Virus record (IMG/VR): IMGVR_UViG_2718218136_000007
Span: 1-49,093 of that record
Origin: a virus
Lineage: Duplodnaviria; Heunggongvirae; Uroviricota; Caudoviricetes
Reading direction: 5' to 3' (one strand)
DNA: 49,093 bases
In this document: piece after piece, positions 5,262 through 42,560 of the stretch
Numbering within the stretch: the stretch's first letter is position 1
How the letters are laid out: the number at the start of each line of letters is the position of its first letter
Program-made: the position numbers and the translations under genes
The notes under the pieces: model-generated
Database searches by the model: none
The model's input: the letters and a program-made list of their open reading frames with translations, nothing else
What the model was told of the DNA's origin: nothing

Positions 5262-8200
5262 TCAACGAATACTGATGCCGGAAGCGGCTTTTTTGGTCAC
5301 AATCACCGTACAGTCGGTGATATTGCCTGCCCCCTGATTGCCTTTCTGGAAAATCTTAAACTCCAGAGTGACGCTTCCCCTGCCACTCGGCATATCAATA
5401 ACTGCACTGTAACTACCGGGAATGGCCCCTTTAGTTTCTCTGGATGCGATTAATACGCCGTTTTTGCGAACTTCAAAACCATAACCCGTGTATCGCGTGC
5501 CTCCTGGGTTATTTCCGCTCCCCGGATCGTCATACGCTATACCGTTAAAAATAATGGGCGGAATAATAATCTGGCGGTCAAAGTTATGATCATCGCTGAT
5601 GGTGACTGTAACCGTACCGTTTGGTGTTTCCGTGTTACCCCACGTACCGACTTTTTTCGGGAAGGCTTTTGATACAGCTTTAACGAAATCTCCTCTGACC
5701 TGGGTCGCCTCCAGCATGCCCTTAATCGTACAGTTCTGGTTAATCGTGACATTGTTGAGCGTTCCTGAGTTCGCATTCACACTGCCACTGATATCCGCAT
5801 TTTTCGCCGTCAGTCTCCCGTCTGATGTCAGGGAAAATGCCGGAGGATTACCGCCGCTGGTAATGGTGGGGGCCGTCAGGCGTTTCAGGAACACTTCATT
5901 CATGAATATCTGATCGCCCTGACCAACAAACATCGGCTTTGTGTTGCCATTCGCAGGATTAATCATCGCAATCCTGTCTGCTGCCAGCAGCACCTGACTC
6001 TGCATGCCGTCAGGGGTGTTCTCAATACCGGCACCGATACCCGCAATATAAAGGCGTCCGTCCTGCATCTGCTGCAGCTTCACTGCCCACATGCTGTTCA
6101 GGTTATTATTTGTATCAACCTGAACCTTCTGTATCTGCTGGATCGCTGCACTCTGGTCTTCCAGTTTCTTATTGACGGTCTGTGTTATTTCATTGCTGAC
6201 ATCCGTTATGGACGTCCTGATTTCAGTCAGGTCAGGCGCAAGCTGACCGTTATCAATCTGCGTCCACAGCTCCTGAGCCAGATGGGTTTTCCCTATCTCG
6301 CCTTTGAAAAAATCCAGATAGCCTGATGCATCATCACTCGGCTGACCGACAGCCTCCACGAATGCCGATTTGCCAACGGTGTTCACACTGCGAACGTAAA
6401 AATAATAATCATGGCCCGGTTTGATATTGATACTGGCGGCTATCCAGTACAGTGCCGTACCAAGATAACGCGCGCTGGTTTCAACCTGCCTGATATCCGC
6501 AATCCGTTTTTCCGAGAACCAGAACTCAAACTGTACCGTCGGGTCATAAACCGCAAGATGCGGCGTGGCAGTTATCTGAAAATAGCCCGGCGTCAGCTCA
6601 ATCCGCGACGGTGCTACCGGTGCGGCAATCCTGAACGATACCGACGCCGGATCGCCCTGCTGTCCCCACGCATTTACCGCCCGGACTGTCAGCGTGTACC
6701 GTCCCAGCGCCAGTTGCGTGAAGCGGTATGTGGTTTCCGCCGTCCGGGCCGTGCTGACCAGCCGCTCACTGCCGTCATCCGCTGCCACGGTCAGGCGAAG
6801 CAGGAAGCTCACGCCCTTCACCACCTTCGGCGTGTCCCATCGCGCCAGCACCTGATATTCCCCGCTGTCTGCAGTGACTTCGGCGGTCAGATGCTGCACT
6901 GCTGGCGGCGTGACACCATTCACCGTGCCGCTCTGGTCGCCGTCAAAGTGCGCCCCGTTATCCACGATGGCCTCTTTTTCCGGTACATGCTGCACGGCGG
7001 TGATGGCATACGTGCCGTCATCGTTCTCACGGATACTCACGCAGCGGAACAGGCGCTGGCGCAGCGTCGGCAGCTTCAGCCCCCACACGCTGTATCCGGC
7101 AACGCCGTCAGGAACACGGCTCACTTTTACCTTCACGCCGTCGGTGACGGACTGGACCTCCACGCTGACCGGATTGCCACTTCCGTCAACCAGGCTTATC
7201 AGCGTGGTACCGGAGGATGGCAGCGTGATTTCACGGTCGAGCGTCAGCGTCCGGGTCTGGCTGTTCACCGCCAGCACGCGCCCGCCGATGCTGATACCGG
7301 CATAGTCATCATCGCAGATTTCAATGACATCGCCCGGTACATGGCGAAGCCCTTCGGCACCCACGCTGAAGTCCACGGTCTGCGTTTCCAGCAGTTCTGT
7401 TTTAATCAGCCACAGCCCGGCGCGGTGTGCCTGCCCCCGGCTGGTACAGCCAAAAGCATCCATCTTCGTGACGTTACGACCGTAACGGGCAATGGCCTGC
7501 GTGTCCTCCACAAGCTCTGTCGCCGTCTCCCAGCCGTTATTCGGGTCAATCCAGTTCACCTCAACGGCATTATGGCGGTCCTTCAGGGCGCTGAAGCTGT
7601 AGCGGAACGGCGCACCATCATCCGGCATCACCACATTACTGCGGTTATAGGTCCACACCTTATCCGACGGTCGGTCCTGCACGAACGTCAGCGTCTGCCC
7701 GTTCCATACCGGCATACAGCGCATCGCAGAGCAGAAATCACTGAGCACATCCCACGCCTTGCGCTGTGTGGTCAGGTACGCATTACAGGTGATGCGCGGC
7801 TCCGTGCCGCCAAAACCGTCCGGCACCGACTGATCGCAATGCTGGCCGATGACATACAGCGCCCATTTGTCCACATCCGCCGCACCAAGACGTTTCCCCA
7901 TGCCGTAGCGCGGATGGGTCAGCATATCCCACAGACACCAGGCCATGTTGTTGCTGTATGCTGGCTTAAACGTTCCGTCCCAGATACCGCTGTATTGCCG
8001 CGTCTGCGGGTTATAGTTCGACGGCACCTGCAGAATGCGCCCGCGCAGATGATAATTACGGCTCACCTGCTGGCTGCCGAACTGCTCCGAATCCACCTGC
8101 ACGCCGACCAGTGCCGTGTTCGGGTAGCACTGTTTCACATCGATGATTTCGGTGTATGACGACCAGAGCGTTTTGTTCTGCAGCTGGTCTGTGGTGCTGT

Positions 8201-8759
8201 CCGGCGTCATCCTGCGCATCCGTATATTGAACGGGCGCGGCGGCAGGTTACCCACCACCACCGAGGCCAGATACTGCGAGGTGGTTTTGCCCTTAATGGT
8301 GATGTCTTTTTCCGTCACCCAGCCACCATTACGCTGGATCTGAACCAGCAGGCGGACTTCCGACGGATTCCGGTCCCCCTTTGAGGTGGTTTCCACCAGT
8401 GCCTGCACGCCGAAGGTAAAGCGCAGACGGTCAATGTTTGCCGACGTGATGGTCCGGGTGATCGGCGTGTCATATTTCACTTCTGTACCGAGCACCGTCT
8501 CGGAGCCGGAGGATTCAAATCCCTCCGGCGGTGTCTGCTCCTGCTCACCGGCCCGGAACACCACCGTGACGCCGGATATATTGGTATTCCCCTCACTGTC
8601 CAGCACCGGCGTACTGTTCAGCAGCACGCTTTTTAATCCATCCACCGGACCTTCAACCGGCCCTTCGCTGATGGCATCGATCACACTCAGCAGCTGCGTG
8701 GACTTCAGGTTGTCCTTCGCTTCGCGCGGGGTATGCCCCTTACTGCTGCCTTTACCCAT
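5262..8759 (-). CDS. J: Central tail fibre / host specificity protein J
   Basis: 1165 aa; N-terminus [37 protein letters not shown] is lambda J-like; position after I. Confidence 0.9.
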
Positions 8760-34639: not shown

Positions 34640-35133
34640 TAAGCCCCCACGTAATTCCCTGACAGATACCACTCTTCACCCGATGCAGCGCGCTTGCTGC
34701 TTTTCCGTAAGCACCGCTCACGATGCGCCAGAAAATTGTTTCGTTCTGGCTGGGAGTGGCTTTCACGGAATGCCGCCATCCACACCGTTGCAGCTCGACG
34801 GAATAAGCCCCTGGACTCCAGTTCTTCAGCCTGGCGGGTCAGGCACAAAATCACCCGGGGGTCGTTAGTGCCGACATAGAAATTGCGCACAGGTCTGGTT
34901 TCACGAACAGATTGTGGTTCCGGCTCCTGCGCTCTCTCAGTCAGGCGCGGGAAATGTCTGCGTGTATCTCCTTCACAACGGTGAGCCACACGCCCACTCT
35001 GACGTAACTTGCTTGCTGACTGCAGAACGCGCTGCCGTGAGTAACCAGCAAAAGCATCCGCAATGTCTCCGGAAGTACACCCCGGATGGGCTTCAATGAA
35101 TTTCTGAACTTCATTCAAAAGACTCATGATCAC
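34639..35133 (-). CDS. Hypothetical protein, possibly PerC-like regulator
   Basis: 164 aa; C-terminal half contains EELESRGLFRRAATVWMAAF, reminiscent of the PerC-family motif as recalled; weak assignment. Confidence 0.35.
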   Translation of the reverse strand: MIMSLLNEVQKFIEAHPGCTSGDIADAFAGYSRQRVLQSASKLRQSGRVAHRCEGDTRRHFPRLTERAQEPEPQSVRETRPVRNFYVGTNDPRVILCLTRQAEELESRGLFRRAATVWMAAFRESHSQPERNNFLAHRERCLRKSSKRAASGEEWYLSGNYVGA

Positions 35134-35948
35134 CCCCTGAATCCTGCCGGGATCTGGCTGTAGTCCACGTTGTCGTAACTGGATTTGAAGTACGGGTCCT
35201 CACGTCTGGCTGCAGATACCGCAGGAACTTCCCAGGATTCTTCGAAATGACGATCCGGACCAAAGAACGTGACAGCCTGTTTCACAAATTGTGTGCCGCT
35301 GTTACCCATCGCAGATACCCAGCCCGCATAGCGTTTCACACCTTCCAGCATGGTTTCGGGGTTTACCCCCTCATTCAAACGGGCTTTCCAGGCTTTGAAG
35401 GCTGCAGATTTTGAATTGCCACCAGCACGTTTGGGATATGCCAGCCATGCCTGCTCAAACTCCGGAGAATATTCCGGTCGGTTTGAACGAACTCGCACGG
35501 ACTCATCAACTGATGCACCAACAGCTATTGGTTCATTGACTGGTTCTTTGACTGGTTCAAAAGAGTGACTGGTTCTGGGTGAATCTCCTGCACTACCCCC
35601 TGGTGCAACTCCTGCACTACCTGGTGAATTTGCTGCACCAGATAGTGAATTATTTGCACTACCACCTAGTGAATCTCCTGCACCATCCAGATGAAGGAGA
35701 TAGATATTACTTGAGTTACCTTTTTCACCTTTCCGGGTGACTTTTTTTACCAGCCCGGACTCACAAAGGGCCGCAATATGATTCATCACAGAACGTTTGC
35801 TAATCTCGCACTGGTCAGCAATATGCTGGTAGCTGGGCCAGCACTCACCCTGATCGCTGGCATTATCAGCCAGCTTGATCAGAACCAGTTTTCGCAATGG
35901 ATTACCCACTCGAATTTTCATCGCTTTAACCATCAGCTCCATACTCAT
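35130..35948 (-). CDS. Replication initiation protein (lambda O-like architecture: N-terminal wHTH, Gly/Ser-rich linker encoded by iterons, C-terminal domain)
   Basis: 272 aa; N-terminal wHTH (ISKRSVMNHIAALCESGLVKK); low-complexity linker GGSANNSLSGAANSPGSAGVAPGGSAGDSP; position downstream of cro/cII-like genes. Confidence 0.65.
   Translation of the reverse strand: MSMELMVKAMKIRVGNPLRKLVLIKLADNASDQGECWPSYQHIADQCEISKRSVMNHIAALCESGLVKKVTRKGEKGNSSNIYLLHLDGAGDSLGGSANNSLSGAANSPGSAGVAPGGSAGDSPRTSHSFEPVKEPVNEPIAVGASVDESVRVRSNRPEYSPEFEQAWLAYPKRAGGNSKSAAFKAWKARLNEGVNPETMLEGVKRYAGWVSAMGNSGTQFVKQAVTFFGPDRHFEESWEVPAVSAARREDPYFKSSYDNVDYSQIPAGFRG
35579..35688. repeat. Five direct repeats (about 20 bp, about 22-bp periodicity) inside the replication gene: candidate origin iterons
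   Basis: Repeat units starting at 35579, 35602, 35623, 35644, 35668 with consensus (G/A)GTGAAT-YWYYTGCAC(T/C)A; followed by a moderately AT-rich stretch 35690-35760. Confidence 0.55.
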
Positions 35949-36181
35949 GCTGCACCTCCGAGATGCTTCATGTTTTTTCCGGAGCGAAAGGTTATAAGCG
36001 GCATACTGACGCGGTAATTACGGCCCAGCGGTTCACAAATCACCTTCTGACATTCACGGTCAACCAGGCTAACACGTAGAACATGCCCTGCAGGCGTGGT
36101 GTACCACTGCCCAACTGTAGGAATTGATGTTTTTTTACGCTGAAATAAACGGTAAATGTTGAGGATCAACGGATTAAGCAT
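35945..36181 (-). CDS. Hypothetical protein (78 aa)
   Basis: ORF only; stop overlaps the replication gene start. Confidence 0.35.
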   Translation of the reverse strand: MLNPLILNIYRLFQRKKTSIPTVGQWYTTPAGHVLRVSLVDRECQKVICEPLGRNYRVSMPLITFRSGKNMKHLGGAA

Positions 36182-37010
36182 GACGATGCCCTCCGCTGAT
36201 ATTCAGGAGACGGTGAATATGAAAATTAGCCTTATCCGCCAGACGAATACGTTCAGCCTGCAAGTTAATAAGGGTTTCTACCAGAACCTGATGCGCCTGC
36301 GGATCCGAAAGAGTTACCTTGCGCAGAGCACGTAGTGCAGTTGTTACATAACTGAGTTTATGTAAGTCTTCATCATTCAGACGAGTGAGGGCTGGGACAG
36401 TAGCCATGATGGCAGCCTCCTTGATCGGTGAAATACTTCCACCACCGGAAACGCCAATTTCGCTGGTGGTGAACTGAACGGGGTTGGCGTAACCGGTGAT
36501 CAAGGAAACCGGCGCATCTTTCGATGCCCCCGCCCAGCCCACCATAACTTTGATGTGAGCAAATGCGGACGATAAAAAAGACGCTGGCGCGTCATATATC
36601 GCCTTGATCAATTCCAGGACGCCAATCCCGGCACCCGCTTTATAAGGTGCCTGAACAGTGTAACGTCCCGGAATGGCAGAATCAATGTGCTGGTGGTCCT
36701 TCACACTCAACAAAATCACGCCTGAATTTCCACAAAGGACTAAAGCACTCATGCGGGTAGTCTTTGCGAAGATAGATAACGCGCTGTGTTTCTGGTTCCC
36801 AACGAATAACATGGACATAAAGCCCTCTTCCGTCACGAAACCAGCGGTTAAGTTCCCGCACAACTCGCCCCCCACAGTCAGGTAAAGTTCTCTGTGGTTA
36901 CTTACAGCCAGGTGATTTGGTAATCTGCATTCATGCCGTAACAACAGGTGTTCAGCGACACTGACCACCAGCTGTTGCGACAAACGGTTATTTGCCGTTA
37001 AACTGTTCAT
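36174..37010 (-). CDS. Hypothetical protein (278 aa)
   Basis: ORF in operon context between the cII-like and replication genes; no family recognised by eye. Confidence 0.45.
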   Translation of the reverse strand: MNSLTANNRLSQQLVVSVAEHLLLRHECRLPNHLAVSNHRELYLTVGGELCGNLTAGFVTEEGFMSMLFVGNQKHSALSIFAKTTRMSALVLCGNSGVILLSVKDHQHIDSAIPGRYTVQAPYKAGAGIGVLELIKAIYDAPASFLSSAFAHIKVMVGWAGASKDAPVSLITGYANPVQFTTSEIGVSGGGSISPIKEAAIMATVPALTRLNDEDLHKLSYVTTALRALRKVTLSDPQAHQVLVETLINLQAERIRLADKANFHIHRLLNISGGHRHA

Positions 37011-37570
37011 GCGTTAGTTTCTCCACAGACACAAAACGCCACGACGCCCGGAGCTGCACACTCGCGGGCGTCACTCTTTTCTGGAGCGCAAAAGATTTTG
37101 TAGACCAGTGCTGCATGCTCTTGGAGCTTCGAAATTGACAGATACAACTCATCATTAATTGCTGTCTGCTCGTGTGGCTCCACGACCCCATCTTCGATTG
37201 CCGAACGAATCTGCTTTGAGTAATTCCCGATCTGTTCGATGACTTCCAGCAGGCGCTGGTTTATATCGGCGTTCTCTACTTCCTCAATTTCAGGAAGCGA
37301 TACGAACACCCCACCAGCAGACTGTGCGACAGCATCCGCAATGTAGTGAGTGCCAGCCGCGCGCTGTAAAACCATTGCCCATCCCAGCGGGAAAATCTGA
37401 TCGCCATCGGCACGAAGGCGGTTAAATAATGCGTTCTCTGTTACATCCAGCCAGTCAGCTGCTTCAGCGTAACCACCCGGCAACGCTGCGATAGTTTTTC
37501 TGACAGCTTTCACGTACCACTCAGGCTGTTTTTCTACTTTCCAGTGATACTTACCCACGGTTAGCCTCAT
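37007..37570 (-). CDS. Putative CII-like regulatory protein (phage 186 CII / CP76-like)
   Basis: 187 aa immediately downstream of cro-like gene; loose similarity in organisation to the 186 CII family; weak. Confidence 0.4.
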   Translation of the reverse strand: MRLTVGKYHWKVEKQPEWYVKAVRKTIAALPGGYAEAADWLDVTENALFNRLRADGDQIFPLGWAMVLQRAAGTHYIADAVAQSAGGVFVSLPEIEEVENADINQRLLEVIEQIGNYSKQIRSAIEDGVVEPHEQTAINDELYLSISKLQEHAALVYKIFCAPEKSDARECAAPGVVAFCVCGETNA

Positions 37571-37601: not shown

Positions 37602-37802
37602 TTAATCTTTCGGATAGATATCCGGTCTTAAGTCAGATTTCGTAATTGCACCTGACGTGCATTGCTCAAGTTTTTTCGCCAGCACAAAACTGGCTTTTTT
37701 ATAACCATTGAAAACCAGCCGTAAGTAGCCAGGTGTTGAGCCAACTTTTCCGGCCAACTCGCCCTGCTGTTCTTTGGTTAAAGAGTCCCAATACGCTTTC
37801 AT
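37602..37802 (-). CDS. Cro-like repressor (66 aa HTH)
   Basis: MKAYWDSLTKEQQGELAGKVGSTPGYLRLVFNGYKKASFVLAKKLEQCTSG... HTH; ATG at 37802 with GGAGG 9 nt upstream; divergent from cI-like gene; track ORF extends upstream. Confidence 0.75.
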   Translation of the reverse strand: MKAYWDSLTKEQQGELAGKVGSTPGYLRLVFNGYKKASFVLAKKLEQCTSGAITKSDLRPDIYPKD

Positions 37803-37892: not shown

Positions 37893-38567
37893 ATGAAAAC
37901 AATCCATGACATCCGGCGGTCTAACGCCAGAAAACTGAGAGATGGTGTTGGCGGGAATTCTTCCTTTGCCACCATGATTGATCGCGAGCCAACCCAGACC
38001 AGCAGGTTTATGGGAGATGGTGCTACTAAAAATATCGGTGACAGCATGGCGCGGCACATCGAAAAATGTTTCGACCTGCCTGTCGGATGGCTTGATCAAG
38101 AACACCAGACCACGAACATCACAAAAAAACCTGATGTTTCAATCACTAACAAACAAATAACGTTAGTCCCTGTCATATCATGGGTACAGGCCGGAGCATG
38201 GAAAGAAGTTGGCTATTCTGAGGTTGATTTGAGCACAGCAGAAACTTACCCCTGCCCTGTACCCTGTGGCGAAATGACTTATATCTTGCGGGTGATTGGT
38301 GATTCAATGATTGATGAGTACCGCCCTGGAGACATGATTTTTGTTGATCCCGAAGTCCCTGCCTGCCACGGTGACGACGTTATTGCATTGATGCACGATA
38401 CAGGCGAAACCACCTTCAAGCGATTGATAGAAGATGGAACACAGCGTTATCTCAAAGCATTAAACCCAAACTGGCCTGAGCCTTACATTAAGATTAACGG
38501 TAATTGCTCTATAATTGGTACAGTGATTTTCTCGGGAAAACCAAGAAGATACACAATAAAGGCCTAA
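37893..38567 (+). CDS. CI-like prophage repressor (HTH plus S24 LexA-like autopeptidase domain)
   Basis: 224 aa; C-terminal ILRVIGDSMIDEYRPGDMIFVDPE with Ser in GDSM and downstream Lys, typical S24 dyad; divergent from cro. Confidence 0.85.
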   Translation: MKTIHDIRRSNARKLRDGVGGNSSFATMIDREPTQTSRFMGDGATKNIGDSMARHIEKCFDLPVGWLDQEHQTTNITKKPDVSITNKQITLVPVISWVQAGAWKEVGYSEVDLSTAETYPCPVPCGEMTYILRVIGDSMIDEYRPGDMIFVDPEVPACHGDDVIALMHDTGETTFKRLIEDGTQRYLKALNPNWPEPYIKINGNCSIIGTVIFSGKPRRYTIKA

Positions 38568-41231: not shown

Positions 41232-42560
41232 CTGAGAGATCCCCTCATAATTTCCCCAAAGCGTAACCATGTGTGAATAAATTTTGAGCTAGTAGGGTTG
41301 CAGCCACGAGTAAGTCTTCCCTTGTTATTGTGTAGCCAGAATGCCGCAAAACTTCCATGCCTAAGCGAACTGTTGAGAGTACGTTTCGATTTCTGACTGT
41401 GTTAGCCTGGAAGTGCTTGTCCCAACCTTGTTTCTGAGCATGAACGCCCGCAAGCCAACATGTTAGTTGAAGCATCAGGGCGATTAGCAGCATGATATCA
41501 AAACGCTCTGAGCTGCTCGTTCGGCTATGGCGTAGGCCTAGTCCGTAGGCAGGACTTTTCAAGTCTCGGAAGGTTTCTTCAATCTGCATTCGCTTCGAAT
41601 AGATATTAACAAGTTGTTTGGGTGTTCGAATTTCAACAGGTAAGTTAGTTGCTAGAACCCATGGCTCCTTTGCCGACGCTGAGTAGATTTTAGGTGACGG
41701 GTGGTGACAATGAGTCCGTGTCGAGCGCTGATTTTTTCGGCCTTTAGAGCGAGATTTATACAATAGAATTTGGCATGAGATTGGATTGCTTTTAGTCAGC
41801 CTCTTATAGCCTAAAGTCTTTGAGTGACTAGATGACATATCATGTAAGTTGCTGATAGGTTTCCAGTTTTCCGCTCCTAGGTCTGCATATTGTACTTTTC
41901 CTCTTACTCGACTTAACCAGTACCAACCCAGCTTCTCAACGGATTTATACCATGGCACTTTAAAGCCAGCATCACTGACAATGAGCGGTGTGGTGTTACT
42001 CGGTAGAATGCTCGCAAGGTCGGCTAGAAATTGGTCATGAGCTTTCTTTGAACATTGCTCTGAAAGCGGGAACGCTTTCTCATAAAGAGTAACAGAACGA
42101 CCGTGTAGTGCGACTGAAGCTCGCAATACCATAAGTCGTTTTTGCTCACGAATATCAGACCAGTCAACAAGTACAATGGGCATCGTATTGCCCGAACAGA
42201 TAAAGCTAGCATGCCAACGGTATACAGCGAGTCGCTCTTTGTGGAGGTGACGATTACCTAACAATCGGTCGATTCGTTTGATGTTATGTTTTGTTCTCGC
42301 TTTGGTTGGCAGGTTACGGCCAAGTTCGGTAAGAGTGAGAGTTTTACAGTCAAGTAATGCGTGGCAAGCCAACGTTAAGCTGTTGAGTCGTTTTAAGTGT
42401 AATTCGGGGCAGAATTGGTAAAGAGAGTCGTGTAAAATATCGAGTTCGCACATCTTGTTGTCTGATTATTGATTTTTCGCGAAACCATTTGATCATATGA
42501 CAAGATGTGTATCTACCTTAACTTAATGATTTTGATAAAAATCATTAGGGGATTCATCAG
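41232..42560 (-). mobile_element. IS10 (1329 bp) insertion sequence
   Basis: Ends CTGAGAGATCCCCTCATAATTTCCCC (inside end, 41232-) and ...GGGGATTCATCAG (reverse complement of outside end CTGATGAATCCCC, ending 42560); flanked by 9-bp direct repeat TGCTGAGTA. Confidence 0.9.
41245..42453 (-). CDS. tnpA: IS10 transposase (IS4 family)
   Basis: 402 aa, MCELDILHDSLYQFCPELHLKRLNSLTLACHALLDCKTLTLTELGRNLPTKA... characteristic of Tn10/IS10 transposase. Confidence 0.9.
   Translation of the reverse strand: MCELDILHDSLYQFCPELHLKRLNSLTLACHALLDCKTLTLTELGRNLPTKARTKHNIKRIDRLLGNRHLHKERLAVYRWHASFICSGNTMPIVLVDWSDIREQKRLMVLRASVALHGRSVTLYEKAFPLSEQCSKKAHDQFLADLASILPSNTTPLIVSDAGFKVPWYKSVEKLGWYWLSRVRGKVQYADLGAENWKPISNLHDMSSSHSKTLGYKRLTKSNPISCQILLYKSRSKGRKNQRSTRTHCHHPSPKIYSASAKEPWVLATNLPVEIRTPKQLVNIYSKRMQIEETFRDLKSPAYGLGLRHSRTSSSERFDIMLLIALMLQLTCWLAGVHAQKQGWDKHFQANTVRNRNVLSTVRLGMEVLRHSGYTITREDLLVAATLLAQNLFTHGYALGKL

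Follow-up and report, generated by a model that had tools for sequence, protein, structure and literature searches.

Introduction

The locus treated here lies in a 49,093-nucleotide (nt) stretch of DNA from a phage of the Caudoviricetes (IMG/VR record IMGVR_UViG_2718218136_000007, positions 1 to 49,093; the whole stretch is called the window), and its closest described counterparts are found in phages P1 and P7, satellite phage P4, Salmonella prophage Gifsy-1 and the e14 prophage of Escherichia coli K-12. In the immI region of P1 and P7 (c4-icd-ant), the C4 RNA carries two loops, a' and b', that face duplicated targets, a1/b1 and a2/b2. The ribosome-binding site that is occluded belongs to the first downstream open reading frame (ORF), which according to the P1 annotation is translationally coupled to the next. 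In P4 (seqA - CI RNA - seqC), the immunity factor is an RNA (references 45-47 in PMC4825925) and this CI RNA prevents replication gene expression by premature termination (PMC4825925). In Gifsy-1, the isrK promoter has been shown experimentally, a short terminated IsrK RNA is made, transcripts reading through the terminator are processed to STnc1160 of about 80 nt, and orf45 starts at +107 (Hershko-Shalev et al., 2016, PMC4825925). For e14, which contains ymfL-ymfM-oweE, YmfM has been described as the cell-division inhibitor SfiC, while expression of ymfL gives no filamentation (Ansari et al., 2020, bioRxiv). At issue in the window is a 278-amino acid (aa) ORF between a CII-like gene and the replication genes. 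We conclude that it is a phantom that extends over small genes and over an IsrK/C4 switch, and that this switch most probably gates a 77-aa gene together with the replication genes that follow.

The window resembles Gifsy-1 isrK-orf45(STnc1160)-anrP in carrying both Rfam families with matching order and spacing, candidate promoter hexamers in the corresponding place, the IsrK terminator, an AUG at about +106/107 within the C4-like 5' stem and a target over the Shine-Dalgarno (SD) sequence of the next gene. In Gifsy-1, however, the cassette stands alone after antQ and drives the antirepressor AnrP, and orf45 is a separate ORF of 45 codons, whereas the cassette of the window sits inside the cro-cII-replication operon, its frame is fused both up- and downstream, and its payload is a 77-aa protein followed by the replication genes. 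With P1 and P7 the window shares the C4 fold, the a' and b' loops, both target sets and the placement of a target over the ribosome-binding site of the first downstream ORF. In contrast to the window, the first ORF of P1 is icd, for a cell-division inhibitor, followed by ant, and no IsrK-type terminator is annotated between a1/b1 and c4. P4 has an isrK-like element and C4 in the same order, ahead of its replication genes (alpha), and also contains the phantom 'Ash/cI protein' ORF, but it is a satellite in which epsilon (helper derepression) comes next, while the window derives from a lambdoid prophage in which the CI/Cro protein switch is primary. e14 has ymfK, ymfT and ymfL, the ATGA junction, a homologous N-terminal segment and a DUF4222 gene overlapped in the +1 frame in common with the window. 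Unlike the window, it lacks the isrK/C4 cassette (Rfam scan), and ymfM stops 20 nt before the end of DUF4222 to give a protein of 112 aa; the YmfM-like part in the window is shorter and without the PxPG motif. The RNA switch as such is of a known kind with prophage members catalogued in Rfam, and APSE-7 is annotated with both RNAs (isrK and C4). What is different here is the position between cro, cII and replication genes, the lack of an antirepressor and the fused open frame.

Results and discussion

An IsrK/C4 cassette with two matching target sets

All features described are encoded on the minus strand unless stated otherwise. An IsrK-like leader RNA was found at 36574-36650 (Rfam RF01394, 64.2 bits against a gathering threshold of 50, E 6.9e-13). 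It consists of a first hairpin, a second hairpin presenting target b1 (TTGGCGT, 36625-36619) in its loop, target a1 (TGATCAAGG, 36610-36602) and an intrinsic terminator (GACGCGCCAGCGTC followed by T6, stem at 36593-36580) that was found independently by a terminator scan. It is followed at 36462-36549 by a C4-type antisense RNA of the family comprising P1/P7 C4, P4 CI and Salmonella STnc1160 (RF01695, 82.3 bits against a gathering threshold of 45, E 4.3e-16). Both matches were repeated in a second scan, and with our own model (R1) the C4 RNA scored 99.6 bits. The C4 structure, a long closing stem around two hairpins with 27 pairs, was evaluated across 13 phages: 350 of 350 cells were paired and ten pairs showed compensatory change, a result matched by none of 500 shuffles, and controls with a slid structure reached at most 49%. 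The minimum free energy fold (-45.4 kcal/mol) is the same as the Rfam structure. The isrK and C4 pair was also found in P4 and in each of the 14 further related phage loci that were examined.

The C4 RNA of the window exposes loop a' (UUUCCUUGAUCA, 36508-36497), complementary to a1 and a2, and a single-stranded segment b' (ACGCCAAC, about 36491-36484), complementary to b1 and b2. The second target set lies 3' of C4 and consists of b2 (TTGGCGT, 36457-36451) and a2 (GATCAAGGAGG, 36426-36416), the complementarity extending over 9 nt for a1, 9-11 nt for a2 and 7 nt each for b1 and b2. Target a2 contains AAGGAGG, 8 nt ahead of the ATG at 36407, such that the pairing of a' (UCCUUGAUC) with GAUCAAGGAGG covers the SD sequence of the 77-aa ORF starting there. 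The duplex of a' and a2 amounts to -20.0 kcal/mol, a value reached by none of 500 shuffles. Across the same 13 phages the C4 loops covary with a1/b1 and a2/b2 over at least eight specificities, and the downstream targets of a phage average 15.9 nt complementary to its own C4 as compared with 9.3 nt for non-cognate combinations. The distance from the end of a2 to the ATG was always 8-16 nt in the phages compared. An invariant AUG, at 36545 in the C4 of the window and equivalent to the orf45 start of Gifsy-1, was located at +103 to +109 in all cassettes mapped, a set that left out P4.

A candidate sigma-70 promoter equivalent to PisrK precedes the leader (36657-36685) and comprises a -35 hexamer TTGATT (36685-36680), overlapping the TGA stop of DUF4222, a 17-nt spacer and a -10 hexamer TACACT (36662-36657). 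It occupies the same position as TTGACA-17-TATATT of Gifsy-1 isrK and the equivalent hexamers in all other cassettes, and by this analogy it may drive the cassette with a start at about 36650.

The 278-aa ORF is a composite frame

The 278-aa ORF (36174-37010) is not one protein gene. Its frame stays open over a YmfM-like stretch (residues 1-50), an out-of-frame DUF4222 gene (residues of about 50-110), the riboregulator (about 117-201, over IsrK and C4) and a 77-aa gene, and over about 60% of its length the amino acid sequence is without constraint. The region has been annotated in different ways. In Shigella phage SfV, orf37 is the single 278-aa ORF with the label 'immunity region', whereas NCBI splits the identical sequence of enterotoxigenic E. 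coli (ETEC) H10407 into DUF4222 (36682-36861, in the other frame) and a 181-aa 'ash family protein' (36174-36719).

The DUF4222 gene encodes 59 aa from a GTG start, and its frame lies one base upstream of the 278-aa frame. It matched Pfam PF13973 (E 1.1e-13, 50.9 bits against a cut-off of 27) and PHROG 1343 (E 2.5e-36). Between the window and Stx1_14040, the 43 nt differences in this gene are distributed 8/7/28 over the codon positions and change 11 aa in its own frame as opposed to 30 in each of the other two. The comparison with e14 gave 19/15/39, with 21 aa differences versus 41 and 39. The excess of third-position changes together with two- to three-fold fewer residue changes indicates that DUF4222 is the selected frame and that the long frame is unconstrained there. 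Homologous DUF4222 loci numbered 43 in species-representative genomes, from many genera across the Enterobacterales. At cassette-free loci the +1 frame is free of stops in 36-38 of the 43 up to one stop codon that ends 20 nt short of the DUF4222 stop, while the +2 frame of the same loci contains 1-11 stops. In the YmfM/DUF4222 pairs the next gene starts no more than about 10 nt from the end of either ORF. Judging from these sequences, YmfM/DUF4222 is apparently a conserved dual-coding arrangement. A fixed module of DUF4222 and C4 cassette was also considered and was rejected, as C4 lies downstream in only one of the 43 loci. A relationship of DUF4222 to P1 Icd was dropped as well: P1 Icd is unrelated to DUF4222 and to the 77-aa and 78-aa proteins.

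The YmfM-like part comprises the first 50 codons of the 278-aa ORF (36862-37010), and its ATG overlaps the ymfL stop (ATGA). By hhalign, residues 1-50 aligned with the N-domains of YmfM family A with a probability of 97.3% (E 1.6e-11), and family A in turn matched e14-type YmfM with 98%; part of the similarity (MNSLT) is forced by the overlap with the ymfL 3' end. Across the 43 DUF4222 loci, substitutions in the YmfM N-domain are distributed 398/293/696 over the codon positions in family A and 96/95/144 in family B, and because of this third-position excess we conclude that the N-terminal, non-overlapping domain evolves as protein. In the YmfM-like part of the window, no codon-position signal was seen in the comparison with Citrobacter braakii, the numbers (7/13/8) being small. 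When the invariant residues of the family (P..PG, RY and W) were used as a test, PxPG proved to be absent: the window has SQQLVVSVAEH where the family has PQLRxxPxPG. With this motif lost, the stretch is possibly degenerate. In the part of Hafnia phage yong2 that was examined, positions 20-199 hold a stand-alone 59-aa homologue of the YmfM N-domain clear of DUF4222, which shows that the conserved unit of YmfM is its N-domain by itself.

The same overlap exists in K-12, where it has gone unannotated in RefSeq. The conserved e14 DUF4222 ORF (NC_000913.3, 1,204,001-1,204,180, plus strand) encodes 59 aa from a TTG start with GGAGA 7-8 nt upstream. In a frame different from that of ymfM it runs over the final 160 nt of this gene, and it also covers the first 11 nt of oweE. 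Filamentation has been reported for a pBAD-ymfM clone, which includes DUF4222 codons 1-53 as well and hence does not separate YmfM from DUF4222 as SfiC. This raises the question of which of the two overlapping products is the SOS-inducible division inhibitor SfiC of K-12.

Proposed mode of action

Given this arrangement, we propose that the riboregulator is self-contained. It would be transcribed from its own candidate promoter as an IsrK-like leader bearing the decoy b1/a1 and the terminator, followed by C4. As known for P1, P4 and STnc1160, C4 would be cut out, presumably by RNase P, of those transcripts that read through the IsrK terminator. Its a' and b' segments would then pair with a2 and b2 on the mRNA and occlude the SD sequence of the 77-aa ORF, with the b1/a1 copy on IsrK competing for C4. 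The 77-aa ORF (36174-36407; MATVPALTRLNDEDL...), which has a strong SD sequence and lies in the frame of the 278-aa ORF, is the first gene 3' of the C4 targets. The start of the 78-aa ORF (35945-36181) overlaps its stop by 8 nt, and the 78-aa stop in turn overlaps the ATG of the replication initiator gene (ATGA). On these overlaps the three ORFs are probably translationally coupled. Since they overlap end to start, a block at the first would be expected to silence the whole chain through loss of translational coupling and Rho-dependent polarity. Such a switch would prevent expression of the replication genes both in the lysogen and from a superinfecting homoimmune genome. It would constitute a second, RNA-based layer of control between the CI/Cro/CII switch and the replication genes, a layer that bears on the induction of prophages, including that of Shiga toxin (Stx) phages, in which the antirepressor version is found.

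Several points weigh against this proposal. The only grounds for the suggested control of the replication genes are the overlapping ORFs and the analogy with P4. The short IsrK RNA of Gifsy-1 activates rather than represses (PMC4825925), and the sign of regulation in the window is therefore not certain. A strict consensus promoter scan returned no minus-strand promoter, TTGATT-17-TACACT matching 8 of 12 consensus positions. The downstream 77-aa helical protein is not of the Rha, Ant or Bro type, i.e. the usual antirepressor payload is absent, and searches with the 77-aa and 78-aa proteins gave no assignable function. Finally, the open frame and the cassette lengths described in the next section mean that ribosomes may traverse the cassette, unlike in a simple untranslated riboregulator.

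An open frame across embedded cassettes

Seven lineages with a cassette embedded in the operon were compared (the window, PhiR47_1, WGPS2/mEp460, Stx1_14040, F1055, Hafnia yong2 and C. braakii). In all seven the long frame is free of stops from the stop of the upstream gene through DUF4222 and the cassette to the downstream gene, and the cassette lengths (243, 243, 243, 246, 246, 240 and 237 nt) are all multiples of three. In the seven stand-alone cassettes (240, 238, 242, 243, 233, 236 and 247 nt) the frame is closed without exception, in six of them upstream of the C4 AUG. A rough star-tree simulation gave probabilities of 0.13-0.28 per lineage for the absence of stops and a product of 1.2e-5, which is overstated because the lineages share ancestry. 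That the frame is open while its residues are unconstrained suggests a role for the act of translation, one possibility being that ribosomes on PR transcripts override both terminator and C4.

This leads to a reading in which the long frame is translated while its product is irrelevant, a reading that complements the proposed IsrK/C4 switch and does not replace it. Ribosomes on PR transcripts would start at the ymfL ATGA junction and cross DUF4222 out of frame, then the terminator and C4, so that hairpins, C4 pairing and Rho action would be prevented. Lytic transcription would thereby ignore the switch, to which only transcripts from the internal promoter, lacking the upstream start codon, would be subject. 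The contrast between embedded and stand-alone cassettes, the divisibility of the embedded lengths by three and the missing amino acid constraint in the cassette are all in keeping with it, as are the +1 frame that stays open at most cassette-free DUF4222 loci and the translation and coupling of orf45 demonstrated in Gifsy-1 (PMC4825925). On the other hand, the relatedness of the embedded lineages weakens the simulation, translation of DUF4222 and of the long frame on one mRNA would conflict, and in Stx1_14040 and Hafnia yong2 no more than a few codons separate the start of the long frame from that of DUF4222. We regard this reading as a serious candidate that nevertheless falls somewhat short of even chances. 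A stronger version holds that embedded cassettes are deliberately kept within an ORF whose product is irrelevant, being riboregulated when transcribed from their own promoter and an inert translated spacer when transcribed from PR, and that upstream the same frame dual-codes with DUF4222, with the consequence that YmfM/SfiC of e14 was never genetically separated from a DUF4222 protein that is unannotated, more strongly conserved and encoded on the same clone. We put this forward tentatively and consider it rather unlikely as a whole.

The 77-aa and 78-aa ORFs

By sequence criteria a real gene occupies the last 77 codons of the 278-aa ORF: the encoded protein is 38% identical (E 2e-9) to the product of a 77-aa ORF at the equivalent position in Hafnia phage yong2. 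It has few relatives, only 8 and 11 in two large protein searches, and no match in Pfam or NCBIfam. Its AlphaFold2 (AF2) model, with a predicted local distance difference test (pLDDT) score of 83.5, shows two long helices forming a helical hairpin, for which the PDB returned no informative match but only matches of the designed coiled-coil type. PhiR47_1, Stx2a_WGPS2, Stx1_14040, mEp460, F1055 and the C. braakii prophage encode at this position a Rha-type antirepressor starting with MATIPAL.... The 77-aa protein begins with the same MAT(I/V)PAL residues as the antirepressors of these sister phages, and this, along with the scarcity of relatives, would fit an inactive relic in which the antirepressor was deleted and the RNA elements and a functionless 77-aa fragment were left behind. 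A relic is nevertheless improbable. The RNA scores are as high as those of functional relatives, all four target sites perfectly match the loops of their own C4, and the 77-aa ORF recurs with the same length and placement in the distant Hafnia phage. Moreover, the arrangement is present at a coverage of at least 80% in 524 of 5426 complete E. coli genomes, 3048 of which contain a fragment of the region.

The 78-aa protein belongs to PHROG 1153, and its 42 homologues all carry the label 'hypothetical'. It is predicted to be a small SH3/Tudor-like beta-barrel of a generic kind and is possibly a distant relative of DUF4222.

The 'Ash family' label

The preliminary description of this DNA had stated that the 278-aa protein is without recognisable motif and had offered a regulator, a helicase loader of a novel type or an exclusion function as possibilities. 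In fact residues 117-210 match Pfam Phage_ASH (PF10554) with 67.8 bits against a gathering threshold of 26. This is the only Pfam match of the ORF, it coincides exactly with the isrK and C4 RNAs, and the family proves to be an artefact of RNA conservation. Substitutions in the cassette are distributed 68/69/53 over the codon positions of the long frame, and 46-62 nt changes go along with 27-30 altered residues out of 81; hence there is no constraint at the protein level. The proposed protein functions are not tenable for an ORF that is largely unconstrained and lies over DUF4222 and IsrK/C4. The suggested regulatory role was right inasmuch as immunity-type regulation is encoded here, but it is RNA-based and of a known kind.

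The artefact can be seen on P4 itself. At 8168-8584 (minus strand), RefSeq still lists a 'cI gene product (AA 1-137), transcriptional repressor' as a coding sequence over the CI RNA gene. On P4, PF10554 matches this obsolete cI ORF over the CI/C4 RNA, while true P4 epsilon corresponds to PF25738. Pfam 'Ash' is thus the conceptual translation of a C4/CI RNA locus. It has been treated as a protein domain of unknown function in work on Stx phages (PMC8951638), and PF10554 has served as a marker for P4 epsilon (bioRxiv 10.1101/2021.03.30.437493). The names 'Ash family protein' and 'Rha/Ash domain', SfV orf37 and the PHROG 'transcriptional regulator' families therefore label a phantom, the conserved signal being the IsrK/C4 riboregulator, and studies using PF10554 as a protein marker detect an RNA gene.

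The annotations of SfV, RefSeq and PHROGs would make the 278-aa ORF, or the 181-aa version of NCBI, a true regulatory protein of an 'Ash family', which is accordingly very hard to credit: the Pfam score, the matches to PHROG 3960/821 ('transcriptional regulator'), the stop-free frame in all embedded homologues with lengths in multiples of three and the use of Rha/Ash as protein domains in the Stx-phage literature (PMC8951638) speak for it, but the match sits on RNAs in the window as in P4, third-position bias is missing and nearly every nt change alters a residue, the N-terminal third overlaps the selected frame of DUF4222, and in Gifsy-1, APSE, phiV10, VT2 and Klebsiella phages the homologous cassette lies between genes and has stops in every frame.

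Genetic context

The locus corresponds to the early-right operon of a lambdoid prophage resembling SfV and e14, with ymfL behind cro (ymfT). Identity over the region is 100% with a prophage found in ETEC H10407 and other E. coli, and 98.8% with Shigella phage SfV. The NCBI annotation of the identical H10407 sequence lists ymfL, DUF4222, the 'ash family protein', a hypothetical protein and an HTH protein. The ORFs of 187 (37007-37570), 278 and 78 aa that had been described are real as ORFs and all on the minus strand. Their placement between cro and the replication initiator was likewise borne out, as they are flanked by the cro-like ymfT (37602-37802), which is divergent from the gene for the S24-peptidase repressor ymfK (37893-38567), and by the gene for an HTH_36/DnaD-N-like, O-like replication initiator (35130-35948), and the slot is indeed that between cII and replication. 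The range of 36174-37570 assigned to all three applies to the 187- and 278-aa ORFs; the 78-aa ORF lies mostly outside it. The replication initiator matched Pfam HTH_36 (E 1.8e-11), DnaD_N and PHROG 270 ('replication initiation protein', E 1.8e-88).

The tentative CII-like assignment of the 187-aa protein stands at the level of the family. The protein matched Pfam PF06892 (Phage_CP76, the CII of phage 186; E 1.2e-14, 54.8 bits against a cut-off of 26), PHROG 101 ('CII-like transcriptional activator', E 7.5e-73) and the YmfL equivalog NCBIfam NF041471 (170.4 bits against a cut-off of 90), in agreement with the PGAP annotation of H10407. YmfL is accordingly a member of the CII-like regulator family (phage 186 CP76 type), for which a role as transcriptional activator for lysogeny is putative; a comparison with solved structures gave no relative at E <=1. 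Its likely start is the GTG at 37558 (37007-37558, 183 aa), which has GAGG six bases upstream and is the start chosen by NCBI, whereas the alternative ATG at 37570 (187 aa) has no SD sequence.

Downstream of the replication gene, three more genes with overlapping starts and stops were noted at 33663-35133. They encode a yfdN-like regulator of the PerC family (34639-35133), a phage Dam methyltransferase (33986-34672) and a small LexA-family protein (33663-33989). Just downstream of rusA, at about 31900-33300, the identical H10407 sequence contains an IS3-family transposase and a truncated KilA-N pseudogene, which indicates that the late-early junction of the prophage is disrupted. At 42446-42515 on the plus strand, the RNA-OUT antisense RNA of IS10 was detected (Rfam RF00240, 98.8 bits), pointing to a copy of IS10 on the left-operon side of the prophage.

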